This document shows positions 1 through 25,772 of a DNA stretch of 27,710 bases, piece by piece. The notes under the pieces were generated by a model that saw only the letters and a program-made list of their open reading frames with translations, ran no database searches and was not told the origin of the DNA. The stretch lies in NCBI GenBank assembly GCA_037127615.1, contig JBAXYC010000001.1:1-27710 (forward strand), read 5' to 3'. This DNA is from a bacterium. Lineage in GTDB: Bacteria; Patescibacteriota; Minisyncoccia; Phycocordibacterales; PALSA-1337. The position numbers and the translations under genes are program-made. Positions within the stretch are counted from its first letter, which is position 1; every line of letters begins with the position of its first letter.

Positions 1-179
1 CAATAGCTCAGTCTCGCGACCATGATGCTCGCCCAGAAAAAAAGAGTATTTTCAATTCCCTACCTACTCAAAATGAACCTGCACCTGCGAAAGAAATAAA
101 AGAAGAAAAGAAAATAGATACTGATGACGATGACTGGGGTGCTATTCCTGCCTTTCTCCGACGCTCAAAAATTAAGTAA
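1..179 (+). CDS. ftsZ: Cell division protein FtsZ, C-terminal tail (partial; 5' end outside window)
   Basis: The frame starting at nt 3 is open and ends ...DTDDDDWGAIPAFLRRSKIK* (TAA 177-179). An acidic linker followed by IPAFLR is the conserved FtsZ C-terminal peptide. Confidence 0.85.
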   Translation, partial: IAQSRDHDARPEKKSIFNSLPTQNEPAPAKEIKEEKKIDTDDDDWGAIPAFLRRSKIK

Positions 180-197
180 ATCTGTTACAATAAATAA

Positions 198-1139
198 ATG
201 ATGTACGATCTCGCAATCATCGGCGGCGGACCTGCAGGAGTAGCTGCGGGTGTGTACGCGTCTCGCAAGCGTCTCAAAACCGTTCTTATTACAAAAGATT
301 TCGGTGGCCAGAGTATCGACTCGCTCGGTATTGAAAACTGGATTGGTACGGTAAATATCCCTGGCGCACAGCTTGCCAAAGATCTCGAAATGCACCTTCG
401 GGCGTATGCTACTGATGCGAAAACTGGCAAGGTCATCGTCGATATAAAAACCGGCGAGCTTTGTCAGCTCATCACAAAAACTGCTGCAGGATTTTCTATA
501 ACAACAAATAAAGGCTCATACGAAGCACGCACCGTCCTCATGACAGCTGGTAGTCACCGCCGCAAGCTCGCTATTCCTGGGGCAGACACATTCGAACACA
601 AAGGCCTTACGTACTGCGCGTCATGTGACGGCCCTCTTTTTACAGGACAGGATGTCGTAGTGGTCGGAGGTGGTAATGCCGGCTTCGAAAGTGCAGCTCA
701 ACTCCTCGCGTACTGCAAGACAGTCACCCTACTGAACCGTAGCGCAAACCTCCGCGCTGATCCGAGCACGATCGCATCAGTCACGGCAGCACCAAACATG
801 AAAGTCGTGCTCAATGCTGTGCCAAAAGAAATAAAGGGTGATAAATTTGTAAATGCGATTGTCTACACTGTTGACGGAAAAGATATGGAGCTCCCTGTAG
901 CTGGTATTTTTGTTGAGATCGGTGCATTACCTACTACCGAGTTTGCTAAAGGCCTCGTCACTCTCGATGACTATGATCGCGTCATTGTCGATCCTCGCAC
1001 ACAGCGTACATCTGTCGACGGTATATGGGCAGCCGGTGACTGCACTGACGGACTTTATCACCAGAACAACATCGCTGCTGGCGACTCCGTAAAGGCGCTT
1101 GAGGATATCTATATTTGGATAAAGAAAAACACGAAATAA
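198..1139 (+). CDS. trxB: Thioredoxin-disulfide reductase
   Basis: FAD motif GGGPAG, redox CASC (YCASCDGPLF), NADPH motif GGGNAG and C-terminal GIWAAGD. Confidence 0.92.
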   Translation: MMYDLAIIGGGPAGVAAGVYASRKRLKTVLITKDFGGQSIDSLGIENWIGTVNIPGAQLAKDLEMHLRAYATDAKTGKVIVDIKTGELCQLITKTAAGFSITTNKGSYEARTVLMTAGSHRRKLAIPGADTFEHKGLTYCASCDGPLFTGQDVVVVGGGNAGFESAAQLLAYCKTVTLLNRSANLRADPSTIASVTAAPNMKVVLNAVPKEIKGDKFVNAIVYTVDGKDMELPVAGIFVEIGALPTTEFAKGLVTLDDYDRVIVDPRTQRTSVDGIWAAGDCTDGLYHQNNIAAGDSVKALEDIYIWIKKNTK

Positions 1140-17785: not shown

Positions 17786-17942
17786 AATTTTATTCAATTT
17801 TCAAGTTTCAGTCGGTTATCTGTATAGATGGAGCTGGGCGGAATGCCGTGTATCCATCTGGGTGTATATTAGCACAAAAAATAGCTCTTGTAAAGGGCTG
17901 GGGAAACGCCCTTGTAGAGCCCTACAATAGGCCTCGTAGCCG

Positions 17943-17971
17943 TTGCAAAATAGCCAAAATCGGTATATTCT
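17943..17971 (+). promoter_or_regulatory. Probable sigma70 promoter for the repeat array and tRNA-Val
   Basis: TTGCAA, 17-nt spacer, TATTCT. Confidence 0.5.
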
Positions 17972-17986
17972 AAATAAACAAAATAT

Positions 17987-18101
17987 GCGCGGTTAGGTGT
18001 TTTGGTAGTTAAGTCAAAGTCATTTGCGCGGTTAGGTGTTTTGGTAGTTAAATCGAGTTATATGCGCGGTTAGGTGTTTTGGTAGTTAAATCAAGTTATA
18101 T
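17987..18101 (+). repeat. Three tandem 38-39 nt units that mimic the tRNA-Val 5' end
   Basis: GCGCGGTTAG+GTGTTTTGGTAGTTAA+12-13 nt, starting at 17987, 18026 and 18064. The tRNA itself starts with GCGCGGTTAG at 18102. Confidence 0.95.
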
Positions 18102-18173
18102 GCGCGGTTAGCTCAGTTGGTAGAGCATCCCCTTGACGTGGGGAGGGTCAGAGGTTCGAATCCTCTATCGCGC
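18102..18173 (+). tRNA. tRNA-Val (GAC)
   Basis: Acceptor GCGCGGT/ATCGCGC, D-arm GCTC-AGTTGGTA-GAGC, anticodon loop TT-GAC-GT and T-arm AGAGG/CCTCT. The anticodon stem is imperfect. Confidence 0.88.
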
Positions 18174-18227
18174 ACAACAAAAAAAAGGTATTATTATGGT
18201 ATAAAAATAACCAATAATACAACTATA

Positions 18228-21200
18228 ATGAACAACAAAATAATCACGCGAGGACTTGCAGCAACTTCCCTCTTTTTATTTTTATTCATCTATAGTTTTG
18301 CTTTGCCGCAGCAGGCTCACGCGCAAATCCCCTGTTACACATACACGCCTTCCACTGCAGCTACTGTTTCTGTCAGCCTTCTGACGAGCAGCGGCGCATC
18401 ACAGACAATAACAATTCCAAATCAAAACCCACCTTCCGTCCTACAAACCATATCATTTGATGCACCAAACTATCTGTGCGCAATGTTTTACAACCTCCAG
18501 TATCCGCAACTTCTTTTTGCAAACTTTTTAACGTCGGCAGGAGTAATACCATTTAAAGGATCGCCTTTTGCCCTCAATCTCCCGTATTCATATACGGATG
18601 GTATTGGCTACAACTATGGCTGGTTTGAATACATGGATTACGAGGGTCTCCCTGATATGGGCTACTCCGCCGCTACTGAAAATGCTGTTATCGATATGAT
18701 TGATAAGTCTCACCAGTTTTCAATCAATGCCGGAAACGGTTTAGGAACAGGAAACGGCTATGGAACATCAGTAGGTTTTTCTGGAAATGATATTGCGATA
18801 TATCCAGCCTACGGGCCCCTCACCATGACTGCCCCTGCCACAAACTGTGTCGCTCTCAGCGGTACCGGCCCTCGAAAAATTGTTTTCTTGCGTGGCGCAT
18901 CATCGGGCATGAGCGTCAGCGACTTTGTTGCACAAGCAAACAAAGTTATCACGAGTGGATTTAAAACGATTGAACCACTCAAATCAAATTTCGATCAGTT
19001 CTCATTTTATCTTGATCTAAAAAACTATACCGAAACAAGTTACCCTGAAGTGGTAACGTCGACAGGTGGCGTTTTCTTTACACAAGCCGCGACACAATCA
19101 CTGATGAATCAAAACAGCTGTTCCGGAGCCACCGGCGTTGCAGACCAGTATTTCTTTTACGCGGGTGCGACCTCTGGGTTTGAGCGTGGCATGAGTATCA
19201 ACAAGGGCCATTTCTCTGGTTTCAACATATCTCAATCTACTGACCCACTCGTTGCAATCCATGAAATGGGACACGCATATGCAGGCCTACAAGATGAGTA
19301 TGCTATTCCCGGCTCAACATACGCTCCAAGCGGCGCACTCGCTCCAGCAGAAAACTGTTCAACAAAACCATCAAAGGATTTTCGTGATCGTCCAAATAAC
19401 AAATGGTATGGGGCGCCAAAAATACAGGGTTGTGGGTACCTCGGATCTGGACCACTGCCGCTTATCGATAGCACATATTATCGACCAAGTAATTCAAGTC
19501 TAATGAACTTGGTTGGTTCATATGGAAATGACAATCACTTCAATGTTATCAGCTGTGGATACATGCTCGCTGCGATCAAGCACCAGGATATCAGTACTCC
19601 GGCTATCGCTGAGACAAATGCCCTTAGCAACTGGCCAACATGTCTCAGTATGGCGTCTGCAGGAACTGTGGTCGCTGATGGTATTCCCGCTTCCGCTTCA
19701 ACTCCTGTCGCCTCAAACTTTACCCCTGCAGGAAATGGTGGAACCATAACGGGATCAGGATTCACCACCACTGGAAATGAGATCATGCTTACTCCGGTAA
19801 CCGGCACCGCACAGGCTCCAGTCACTACTCAATCTGCAAATGTGTTTTCAATATTTGATGTATTTAAAAATTTATTTAATAAAATCATCCCTGAAGCACA
19901 TGGCCAGACTACCACTACGTCATACCAGATCGATGACGTACCAAGCATCGATGGCACATCTCTCAACTTTACCGTGCCCACAAGTACTCCAGATGGTACA
20001 TACAAGATATCTGTCGCTGCATTAAATAGTCCATGGACAGCAACTTCATACACTATCGTTGTCAGTGGAAATGGTGCTGGGAATCCTGGTACAGGCACAG
20101 GTACTGGCACGGGCACCGGTACTGGCACTGGTGGCACAACGACAGGCGCAGCCTATCCCGCTTCAAAACCAGCAGCCGCAGTCTACTCGTGTACAAGCGG
20201 CTACACTCTCCAATCAAACAATACATGCTTCAAACCCGCTGTTACTACAAATACACCCGCAAGCAGCTATGGTGCATCACTCGGCTGTCAGTCTGGATAT
20301 TCATACAACGCTTCAATGAATGTCTGTCAGGGAACATACAATGGTCTTCCGATAAATGCCGCGGCTCAATACACATGTCCTTCTGGTGGCACATTGTCAG
20401 GTTCAACATGTAATGTACCTGCGTCATCTGTCACTACAGCAGCAAGTACCGTCACTGCTACCGCAAAGTATTCGTGCTCAACCGGCTACACACTAGCGAC
20501 TGCGACTTGTACCATAAATGGTCCAACAAACCTCACTGCCAATTCAAGTAAAAATGGTCAGGTTACTCTCACGTGGAGCAATAACAGTGTGCCAAATGGA
20601 TACAATACATGCGTCGAGCGTGCACTTGGTACAACGGGAGCCTTTAGTTGTATGACTGCGCTTATGCCCCCTACTGGATCAACAATCCTGCCAACAACAT
20701 ATGTTGATGCTGGCCTCCCTCCATATACCAAATATCAATATCGCGTACGTATGGCACTCATGTCGACACTCGGCACACTCGCTGGCTCATATTCAAGTCC
20801 ATATTCAAATACGGTAACTGCTACAACAGCCCAGACCCCAACAGCTCCGACCGTAACAGCGACTGCACAGTCAACATCTGGCATCAATCTCACCTGGACA
20901 ACTACTGAAAATAACATCTCTGGATACGGTGTATACCTTATTTCAGGGACAGTAAAAACATTTATTGCGACAACTACTGTAAAAAATTATGCGGTTTCAG
21001 GACTTTCAGCTGGAACACAATATTGTTACGGTGTTATTTCCTCAGTTAATCCATTAAATAATTCCGCGATGAGTAAAAGCGCGTGTGCCACAACGGTCGC
21101 TACACCCGTTGCCACATCAACACCTCCTGTTACGCCACCAGCAACAACTACTCCACCAGTGGTTACTCCACCTCCCGCTACGACGACTCCTCCGGTCACA

Positions 21201-24040: not shown

Positions 24041-24505
24041 ATGGCAAAAGAAAAAAAATCTTTTTTTGAGCGATTGACAGGTACCGTACGACTCGATGAG
24101 AAGGACGTTGCTGAAAAAGGCTCGCATCTCCACGAAATCGACGACGCAAAAGATGCGTGGGCAGAGGAGGAAAAAGATGCCGAGCTCACTGTCGATGTCT
24201 CTCAGACTCCTGATGAGATCATCCTCAAGGCAATGGTCGCTGGCGTGCACCCAGACGACCTCGAGGTAGATATTACTCGTGACATGGTCACGATCAAGGG
24301 CCACCGTGAGGAAGAGCGCGCTGGAAAGGACGAGGACTTCTTTGTCCAGGAGCTCTACTGGGGCTCATTCTCACGCTCAATTACCCTTCCTGAGGAGATC
24401 GATGTTGATGGTGCTGAAGCCATTGAAAAGCACGGCCTTCTCATTCTCAAACTTCCCCGCATCGACAAGGGACGAAAAACTAAGCTCAAGATAAAGACAG
24501 TCTAG
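24041..24505 (+). CDS. Small heat-shock protein (Hsp20/alpha-crystallin)
   Basis: VDVSQTPDEI, VTIKG, WGSFSRSITLP and HGLLILKLP. Confidence 0.93.
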   Translation: MAKEKKSFFERLTGTVRLDEKDVAEKGSHLHEIDDAKDAWAEEEKDAELTVDVSQTPDEIILKAMVAGVHPDDLEVDITRDMVTIKGHREEERAGKDEDFFVQELYWGSFSRSITLPEEIDVDGAEAIEKHGLLILKLPRIDKGRKTKLKIKTV

Positions 24506-24510
24506 TAAAA

Positions 24511-24545
24511 TAAAAAACGTCACACTCAATGCGTGACGTTTTTTA
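24511..24545. terminator. Bidirectional terminator between hsp20 and tRNA-Phe
   Basis: 13-bp perfect stem TAAAAAACGTCAC/GTGACGTTTTTTA between convergent genes. Confidence 0.85.
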
Positions 24546-24551
24546 TTTATA

Positions 24552-24627
24552 TGGTGCCAAGAACCAGATTCGAACTGGTGACCCTTCCCTCTTCAGGGGA
24601 ATGCTCTACCAACTGAGCTATCTTGGC
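24552..24627 (-). tRNA. tRNA-Phe (GAA)
   Basis: 76-nt cloverleaf with acceptor GCCAAGA/TCTTGGC, anticodon arm TTCCC-CTGAAGA-GGGAA and encoded CCA. Confidence 0.95.
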
Positions 24628-24704
24628 GAAGACTCTGATTTAACTACCAAAACACCTATCTTGGCGAATACTTTAACTTAACTACCAAAACACCTATCTT
24701 TAGC
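24628..24704 (-). repeat. Two tandem ~38 nt units that mimic the tRNA-Phe 5' end
   Basis: Minus strand reads GCTAAAGATAG+GTGTTTTGGTAGTTAA+GTTAAAGTATTC, then GCCAAGATAG+GTGTTTTGGTAGTTAA+ATCAGAGTCTTC, then the tRNA (GCCAAGATAG...). Confidence 0.95.
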
Positions 24705-24717
24705 GCGGTATTTTAAT

Positions 24718-25002
24718 TTATTTATTCTGCAATGTCTGAACTACTGCCCGTAGCTCTGAAACACTTGTTGACGCAGATGGAACGGTTGGCACATTGCCGC
24801 CGCCGAGCTCTGTCGAAAGCCAATTTACATATGGCTGAATAATATAGTATGCCCCGAACGAAAGACCGATAATAAGGAGCCAATACGCGACTTGAAAAAT
24901 ATGGCCGTTTCGAGCGCGGCGGTTCATTTTTACAAGTAGTGCATTGTTGTCGAGGGAAACCTTTAGCGTCCGCTCGAGTAGGTTCTTTTCTTCAGGGGTC
25001 AT
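24718..25002 (-). CDS. Small single-pass membrane hypothetical protein
   Basis: Start MTPEEK at ATG 25002 (the ORF-track extension overlaps tRNA-Arg). One TM helix, AYWLLIIGLSFGAYYII. Confidence 0.7.
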   Translation of the reverse strand: MTPEEKNLLERTLKVSLDNNALLVKMNRRARNGHIFQVAYWLLIIGLSFGAYYIIQPYVNWLSTELGGGNVPTVPSASTSVSELRAVVQTLQNK

Positions 25003-25062: not shown

Positions 25063-25137
25063 TGGTGCCACCAGCAGGAATCGAACCTGCATCTAGAGCT
25101 TAGGAGTCCCTTGTTCTATCCATTGAACTATGGCGGC
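25063..25137 (-). tRNA. tRNA-Arg (CCT)
   Basis: Acceptor GCCGCCA/TGGTGGC, anticodon loop CT-CCT-AA, T-arm GCAGG/CCTGC and encoded CCA. A31-G39 is mismatched. Confidence 0.88.
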
Positions 25138-25772
25138 GTTGATTCCAACTTAATATAATCAATCATACTAATCACTGACTTGAAATACGCTGCAGCTCTT
25201 ACTATTCGTACTCGACACATTCCATATATTAGCCTCTTATTATCACCTCCCTTCAGAATTTCATAACCAACCAGCTGTTTTTGGTCAATATTCAGAAAAT
25301 TTGTCCAAAAAAATATAGTTTTTTGAATATCCATTCCTGCAAATATCCGTAGACCAAGCCTTATTTCACTTTTCGGTACCCCCAATGTATACAGCCCCTT
25401 AAGAAAAGATCTAATAAGATAAGGGTCTCCGTTGATTAAGTTAAATTCCCCTTTTGACCCTTCGCCCCAATAGATAGCAGCGAGAACAAGTAGTCTATCT
25501 CGATCAGAAATCTCACCTAACGTACTAGCGACCCGCTCCTTTGCTTCAAGCCATTTTTTTCTTGCCCGCTCTTTGCTGCCTCCTTGTTTTACCCTCAGGG
25601 CATCTCGAAACTTTGGTAACACCTCAACTTCTTTAATATATTTAAACACTGTTCCTGATGCACGTCCAGTGATTTTTTTGATTTCAGGCAAAGAATGCCC
25701 AGTCTTCCTTAAACTGACTATTCGCCTTATTTCTGTTTTGGTAAGAGATTTCTTTGATGGAGTAAAAAGTAT
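25128..25772 (-). CDS. HTH plus degenerate LAGLIDADG-like protein overlapping the tRNA-Arg 5' end
   Basis: AAIYWGEGSK helix, NGDPYLIRSFL and YGMCRVRI. The frame stays open upstream of TTG 25691 through an HTH (EIRRIVSLRKTGHSLPEIKKITGRASGTVFKY) to ATA 25772. The start codon is uncertain. Confidence 0.65.
   Translation of the reverse strand: MLFTPSKKSLTKTEIRRIVSLRKTGHSLPEIKKITGRASGTVFKYIKEVEVLPKFRDALRVKQGGSKERARKKWLEAKERVASTLGEISDRDRLLVLAAIYWGEGSKGEFNLINGDPYLIRSFLKGLYTLGVPKSEIRLGLRIFAGMDIQKTIFFWTNFLNIDQKQLVGYEILKGGDNKRLIYGMCRVRIVRAAAYFKSVISMIDYIKLESTPP

Follow-up and report, generated by a model that had tools for sequence, protein, structure and literature searches.

Tandem repeats mimicking the tRNA 5' end upstream of tRNA-Phe belong to a putative leader-repeat family distributed across an order of Patescibacteria

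In the plastids of Brassicaceae, tandem partial copies of trnF(GAA) lie directly upstream of the functional gene, with their number shifting by unequal exchange, and these pseudogene arrays are regarded as neutral. In the tyrT operon of E. coli, the 178-bp repeats (rtT RNA) each contain a piece of the tRNA and are co-transcribed with it. Repeat duplication by Cas1-Cas2 at CRISPR arrays and target-site duplication by casposons both reflect staggered integration that duplicates the target, with units being added at one polar end. In the leaders of stable-RNA operons, the rrn boxA, i.e., the NusB/NusE antitermination site, is a short, U-rich, single-stranded box. Finally, fragments of tRNA genes border integrated prophages and genomic islands, where they flank kilobases of mobile DNA that includes an integrase and usually correspond to the 3' part of the gene (PMC9897764).

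The units described here resemble such prophage- and island-associated fragments in being partial copies with a sharp junction to foreign sequence and with an intact tRNA gene adjoining, yet differ in lying 12-60 nt from the gene, in corresponding to its 5' end, in being tandem and in containing a conserved box. Nor does a mobile element with an integrase, as expected between attL and attR, separate fragment from tRNA, with the copies before tRNA-Phe being separated by 12-nt tails only. Whereas the Brassicaceae arrays involve a single tRNA and no shared rewritten box, one box recurs here at at least 11 tRNA species across an order. The tyrT repeats lie downstream of the gene, copy the tRNA 3' end and are confined to one operon, whereas the present units lie upstream, copy the 5' end and have no Rfam match; over the region containing the Val array (17850-18250), a search at E values up to 10 matched the tRNA alone. 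As compared with CRISPR arrays and casposons, the inserted part is here constant while the duplicated part is locus-specific and up to 50 nt long, and no cas context was seen. As for boxA, the version found in the order's own rrn leaders (TGTTCTTTGAAAT or TGTACTTTGAAAT) only loosely resembles the TGTYTTGG of the units, given that two 1-nt gaps are needed for alignment and that the units are not preceded by a boxB hairpin. In two rRNA loci of relatives (L312 in genome G589 and L311 in G768), a leader hairpin followed by a canonical boxA was noted. In G589, the sequence beyond the matched part of the 16S gene includes an ORF that has a LAGLIDADG motif (GFIDGEGSF) and that probably codes for an intronic endonuclease.

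Unit arrays at the tRNA-Phe and tRNA-Val loci

In the window, namely the whole 27,710-nt stretch of DNA that was analysed, two 38-nt units lie directly 5' of tRNA-Phe(GAA), each comprising the tRNA's own nt 1-10, a 16-nt core and a 12-nt tail (Table 1). The original prediction, made from the sequence and a list of its ORFs, had described two minus-strand units with a 38-nt period, beginning with the tRNA-Phe 5' end and continuing with the core seen before tRNA-Val(GAC), and this description was confirmed. The TAAAAT that had been taken as a -10 box (24715-24710) also proved real, being the -10 element of the sole sigma-70-like site found by a consensus scan of 24450-24800. The promoter-like site before the Val array resembles that lying 10 nt before the unit-free tRNA-Val of a congener (G003).

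Table 1. Features of the tRNA-Phe and tRNA-Val loci and their positions in the window
Feature	Position	Strand	Details
Phe unit 1 (distal)	24666..24704	-	acceptor copy GCTAAAGATAG (24704-24694), degenerate; core GTGTTTTGGTAGTTAA (24693-24678); tail GTTAAAGTATTC (24677-24666)
Phe unit 2 (proximal)	24628..24665	-	GCCAAGATAG (24665-24656), exact tRNA-Phe nt 1-10 (10/10); core GTGTTTTGGTAGTTAA (24655-24640); tail ATCAGAGTCTTC (24639-24628)
tRNA-Phe(GAA), gene that the Phe units abut	24552..24627	-	
Promoter-like site CAGACA-17-TAAAAT	24710..24738	-	ends 5-6 nt before Phe unit 1
Val array, three units (39, 38 and 38 nt)	17987..18101	+	tRNA-Val nt 1-10 GCGCGGTTAG; core identical to that of the Phe units
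tRNA-Val(GAC)	18102..18175	+	
tRNA-Val promoter-like site TTGCAA-17-TATTCT	17943..17971	+	15 nt before Val unit 1; from our own scoring, unlisted by the stricter scan

Five exact copies of the core GTGTTTTGGTAGTTAA are present in the window, three before tRNA-Val and two before tRNA-Phe, as compared with 0.29 expected, and none of 100 shuffles reached this number. As originally noted, the two tRNAs share a D-arm, TAGCTCAGTTGGTAGAGCAT. The tails of the two arrays had likewise been proposed to run in parallel, and in this respect the distal tails (Val unit 1 and Phe unit 1) do agree at 10/13 positions, as compared with 8-9/13 within arrays, although these numbers are small. Since contigs from an independent lake-water sequencing run span both the Val and the Phe arrays with 0-3 differences, an assembly artefact is ruled out for both. 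Among four sequencing runs compared with the window, the RNA run did not cover the arrays and the DNA contigs contained no variant in unit number, neither of which speaks for or against any reading of the units. Directly after tRNA-Phe (24500-24545, minus strand), a hairpin (ACGTCAC...GTGACGT) followed by a T-run appears terminator-like by eye; it was not listed by the consensus scan.

The assembly (747 kb, 88% complete, 34 tRNAs) contains two further arrays, namely two units before tRNA-Thr(GGT) on contig C63 and three before tRNA-Ile(TAT) on contig C13, bringing the total to four. When the first 30 nt of each tRNA were locally aligned with that gene's own flanks, these four arrays, together with a copy near tRNA-Ser(GCT), stood apart from all remaining tRNAs and from the downstream controls. 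Two weak matches on contig C89 proved to belong to a coding repeat. The tRNA-Ser(GCT) copy is of a second, differently built kind, consisting of a 21-nt copy of the tRNA-Ser 5' end, with one mismatch, followed by unrelated sequence and located ~111 nt upstream of the gene (positions 150-242, minus strand, of contig C125 in this genome, G000).

The Thr-TGT, Thr-CGT, Lys-TTT and Val-TAC genes of the same genome have no units despite carrying an identical D-arm. Having this D-arm is, therefore, not enough to trigger units. Moreover, the box ignores D-loop variants specific to individual tRNAs (C16, A16 and C20). As such, the proposal that recognition of the D-arm triggers unit formation was not upheld.

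Anatomy and distribution of the unit family

In total, 103 units were collected across genomes. In general, a unit comprises nt 1-10/12 of the cognate tRNA, a box (TAG-CTGTYTTGG-TAG-n-TA) and a variable tail. Relative to the tRNA, nt 1-12 and 16-22 are kept, C13 is replaced by G, A14 by T and G15 by Y, and positions 24-25 read TA; the box is a copy of the D-arm in which all four D-stem pairs are broken and the loop, TTGGTAG, is still in register. In the Phe and Val units, the box reads TAGGTGTTTTGGTAGTTA and thereby differs by a C11-to-G change that is private to them. Units occur as 1-4 tandem copies (one in 34 arrays, two in 15, three in nine and four in three), always on the strand of the tRNA and always 5' of it, with orientation and side being strict in all 58 arrays. 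Unit lengths are bimodal (38-42 and 72-76 nt), with a modal spacing of 38 nt. In long units, nt 1-12 are duplicated along with 25-38 nt of the leader, and the duplicated stretch spans 10 to ~50 nt overall. No ORF lies between unit and tRNA in any of the 58 arrays and, in the collected units, no terminal inverted repeats were detected and the right end is not conserved.

The acceptor copy is identical to the cognate tRNA at 7/7 positions in 63 of 86 units, with a mean of 6.4 matches, as compared with 2.8 for non-cognate tRNAs. Pairing of this copy with the tRNA 3' strand was considered and rejected, as mismatches do not preserve pairing (14 of 42 do so vs. 9.3 expected, an excess that comes mostly from one array) and minimum-energy folds were uninformative. 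The identity is, instead, read as a by-product of duplication and homogenisation between direct repeats (leader plus nt 1-12). The possibility that units are decayed 5' halves of tRNAs or decayed whole tRNAs was also discarded, since tails are unrelated to their own tRNA beyond nt 26, the exception being L074; moreover, tails are no closer to their own tRNA than to other tRNAs, whereas the tails of retro-copies would be expected to derive from tRNA nt 27 onward. Hairpins within units that were spotted by eye (GUYUUGG/CCAAGAU and GCUGU/ACAGC) were likewise abandoned, given that foreign tails gave the same duplex energies as the tail belonging to the unit, and no consistent hairpin or other structure was seen across units. 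Complementarity of the box to RNase P RNA was no better than that of shuffles. No T-box-like covariation with the discriminator was found, with tRNA-Thr(GGT) having a T discriminator and its units keeping TGGT.

The core was found in 29 of 101 genomes of the family, beside Val, Thr, Lys, Ala and Phe tRNAs. Of 401 genomes sampled from the order, 66, from at least 30 families, contain the exact 15-mer TAGCTGTYTTGGTAG, with ~170 matches as compared with two for a reversed control. At all 40 of the 15-mer places that were retrieved, as well as in 20 more regions, a tRNA follows immediately on the same strand. Across the order, the element precedes at least 11 tRNA species, with units having been seen before Lys-CTT/TTT, Val-GAC/TAC, Thr-TGT/GGT/CGT, Ile-TAT/GAT, Met and Phe tRNAs, as well as before some intron-bearing genes. 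In a 400-genome sample of the phylum, matches outside the order fall inside ORFs, with no tRNA nearby. Among the matches listed in a scan of genomes of all species, tRNA linkage was seen in Patescibacteria only, the rest being mostly chance matches in large genomes; the tRNA-linked matches listed bear titles such as Nomurabacteria, Taylorbacteria, Parcubacteria and Paceibacterota, together with seven MAGs labelled Saccharibacteria.

The Phe units thus belong to an order-wide leader-repeat family of the Paceibacteria/Parcubacteria type that mimics the tRNA 5' end and that is defined here. No description of the element was found in the literature, and it appears to be a conserved, lineage-wide and undescribed element rather than debris of decay. 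At the same time, the element is dispensable, since its presence is patchy across the order and tRNAs with the same D-arm lack units in the present genome.

Two side observations concern relatives. Several loci (L009, L018, L027, L174 and L190) contain a long insertion in the anticodon loop of tRNA-Thr(GGT), and units are also found upstream of such split genes. In locus L100 (G589:C1:425050-425350), one unit-like head (GCGCGTGTAG) with the box lies 144 nt upstream of a tRNA-like start (GCGCGTGTAGCTCAGG) that was not called as a tRNA; this locus is found ~2 kb beyond a 16S gene and could correspond to an intron-split tRNA or to the start of another stable RNA.

Conservation, turnover and copying between loci

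Positions outside the search pattern are still conserved, with T24 being found in 78% and A25 in 79% of cases, while position 23 and those from 26 onward are free. Positions 8-22, together with T24 and A25, are fixed even as tails diverge completely, also within a genus. For example, in four genomes of one genus with units before Lys-TTT, the five copies of the 31-nt unit head differ at one base, whereas their tails defy alignment and the copy number is one or two. That the head is kept in this way among members of a genus is an argument for selection. Furthermore, the box shows no changes in L101, L103 and L111, in which the acceptor copy has decayed. Conversely, in L124 and L129 the box is rewritten beside a 38-nt leader copy with no differences, so that the rewrite does not represent gradual decay. 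That the units are not products of independent decay, as originally argued, is also supported by the occurrence of the same rewrite (C13G, A14T and G15Y, with T24/A25) at at least 11 tRNA species and in at least 30 families, and by the C11-to-G change common to the Val and Phe arrays.

Two findings that would have spoken against the original prediction, namely that one locus arose from wholesale duplication of the other or that unit number is invariant and empty alleles do not exist, were not obtained. Neither the Val nor the Phe locus duplicates the other, and copy number ranges from 0 to 4. In congeners G003 and G016, units are lacking at Val-GAC as well as at Phe-GAA, with the orthologous upstream ORF of G016 ending 1 nt short of tRNA-Phe. 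Each of these congeners does carry a unit at Thr-TGT, where the present genome has none.

All five Val and Phe units read TAGGTG rather than TAGCTG, reflecting the C11-to-G change, a variant found in none of 100 other genomes of the family and absent from the Thr and Ile units of the same genome. The shared sequence begins with the altered base, directly behind the locus-specific part, and the two loci lie 6.5 kb apart. Ordinary gene conversion would have just 3 nt of homology on the C11 side. Tails are more alike across different tRNAs within a genome (9-15% of pairs with at least 67% identity) than between genomes (1-2%), with a permutation p of ~0.06. Together, the shared C11-to-G change and the likeness of the tails support the original view of the Val and Phe arrays as non-independent and suggest that some copying between loci has occurred. 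Purely local duplication explains neither observation. Distal units are usually the most diverged.

Possible function and origin of the units

Promoter-like sites precede 26% of distal units, as compared with 8% of shuffles, and no sigma-70 promoter was found inside short units at any of 58 short-unit junctions; some long units (54-80 nt) carry a promoter-like site of their own. As before tRNAs, N(-1) before distal units is T or C, and RNase P RNA is present. Because they lie between promoter and tRNA, the units should be leader RNA, presumably forming the leader of the pre-tRNA transcript, from which RNase P would release them. On balance, we consider it probable that they represent a selected, co-transcribed element of the pre-tRNA leader that is amplified and homogenised locally and in which the box serves as a recognition site. 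The selected part would be the box and not the acceptor copy, with the box most likely acting as a single-stranded recognition site for a protein or an RNA involved in tRNA transcription or maturation. Arrays would grow, shrink and vanish by slippage or unequal exchange between direct repeats (leader plus nt 1-12), a process that would also keep the acceptor copy identical to the neighbouring tRNA, while occasional copying between loci would spread variants.

The original prediction had sought an enzyme that co-occurs with units, and phylogenetic profiling offered no such association for either candidate considered. A reverse transcriptase (RVT_1) is encoded in 26 of 66 unit-bearing genomes, as compared with 167 of 401 overall, and is missing from several complete genomes that are rich in units. 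The second candidate, a 187-aa ORF of the window (25128-25691, minus strand), overlaps tRNA-Arg(CCT) (25063-25137) and ends in the TAG of tRNA-Arg nt 8-10. In the predicted protein, a helical N-terminal part is followed by a LAGLIDADG-type fold that spans residues 60-185 (I-DmoI, Z 7.3; WhiA, Z 7.0); Foldseek and phmmer searches against the PDB returned nothing. All 13 of its closest homologues, from many families of the order, end between -44 and +25 nt from the +1 of tRNA-Arg(CCT), and more distant homologues abut tRNA-Ile(TAT), with up to five copies per genome. Homologues of this ORF occur in 137 of 401 genomes and overlap with the unit-bearing genomes in 22 cases vs. 22.5 expected (odds ratio, 0.96); no tRNA 5' copies were found upstream of or flanking the LAGLIDADG ORFs. 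No Y1 transposase and only one tyrosine recombinase were detected in this 88%-complete genome. Contig C6 of the same genome (C6:8-1018, L144) encodes a 336-aa reverse transcriptase that best matches group II intron RT/maturase models, below cut-off, with a rhodanese-domain gene downstream.

These results bear on the possibility that the units are selfish micro-insertions, whereby a trans-acting enzyme (an integrase, a transposase or a casposase-like protein) would insert an element starting with GTYTTGGTAG after tRNA nt 10-12 and duplicate the tRNA start as a target-site duplication, with repeated events building arrays in which the newest unit lies next to the tRNA. Such a scheme accommodates the abrupt passage from the locus-specific nt 1-10 to the shared sequence, a private C11-to-G change at precisely the first shared base of two loci that are both empty in congeners, a box that does not track local D-loop variants, tails that are more alike across tRNAs within a genome, distal units that are usually the most diverged and a patchy distribution. 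It is nonetheless unlikely, given the unconserved right end and the lack of terminal inverted repeats, such that the units do not look like MITEs or transposons, the repetition in long units of nt 1-12 together with 25-38 nt of leader, more than a target-site duplication would span, the lack of a matching enzyme among those listed above, and a head that is conserved in vertical descent within a genus. Quite unlikely, too, is a related version according to which an active copy mechanism installs a fixed box of ~15 nt, together with a tail, behind tRNA nt 1-10/12 while duplicating the tRNA start, in which case the units would be tRNA-5'-targeted micro-insertions of a new class, giving rise to polar arrays, and the C11-to-G change would be a fresh footprint.

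Were the box instead to act at the DNA level, as a duplex operator bound just downstream of the start site by a lineage-specific regulator of tRNA genes, with tandem copies allowing for cooperative binding, one could understand why sequence is conserved without RNA structure or covariation, why the element is promoter-proximal, and why positions 23-27 show genome- or genus-specific subtypes common to different tRNAs, as would be the case with one co-evolving trans factor. A DNA site would, however, not require the strict orientation and side seen in 58 of 58 arrays, a modal spacing of 38 nt does not correspond to an integral number of helical turns and no candidate regulator was identified, all of which renders this explanation very doubtful. 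Highly improbable is the view of the units as neutral, independently decaying debris, whether this debris stems from tandem duplication of part of the tRNA 5' region or represents the attL/attR scars of integrated elements. Partial tRNA copies beside tRNA genes are indeed common, with one of another type preceding tRNA-Ser(GCT) here, and copy number does vary. Still, the identical multi-base rewrite is too widely shared among tRNA species and families, the box is conserved where tails are scrambled, no integrated element lies between unit and tRNA, and it is the 5' end and not the 3' end that is copied.

Returning to the reading of the units as a selected leader element, should the box be functional, then one large lineage of ultra-small bacteria would have a dedicated, tRNA-derived signal in its pre-tRNA leaders. 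To our knowledge, no textbook pathway of tRNA transcription or processing predicts such a leader signal. Were the units instead installed by an enzyme, they would point to a new mechanism of sequence-specific insertion, directed at tRNA gene 5' ends. In practical terms, the units are easily mistaken for tRNA pseudogenes or assembly noise, and explain the frequent contig breaks at tRNA loci in these genomes. A functional box would, moreover, offer a handle on the control of tRNA supply in organisms with minimal regulatory repertoires.
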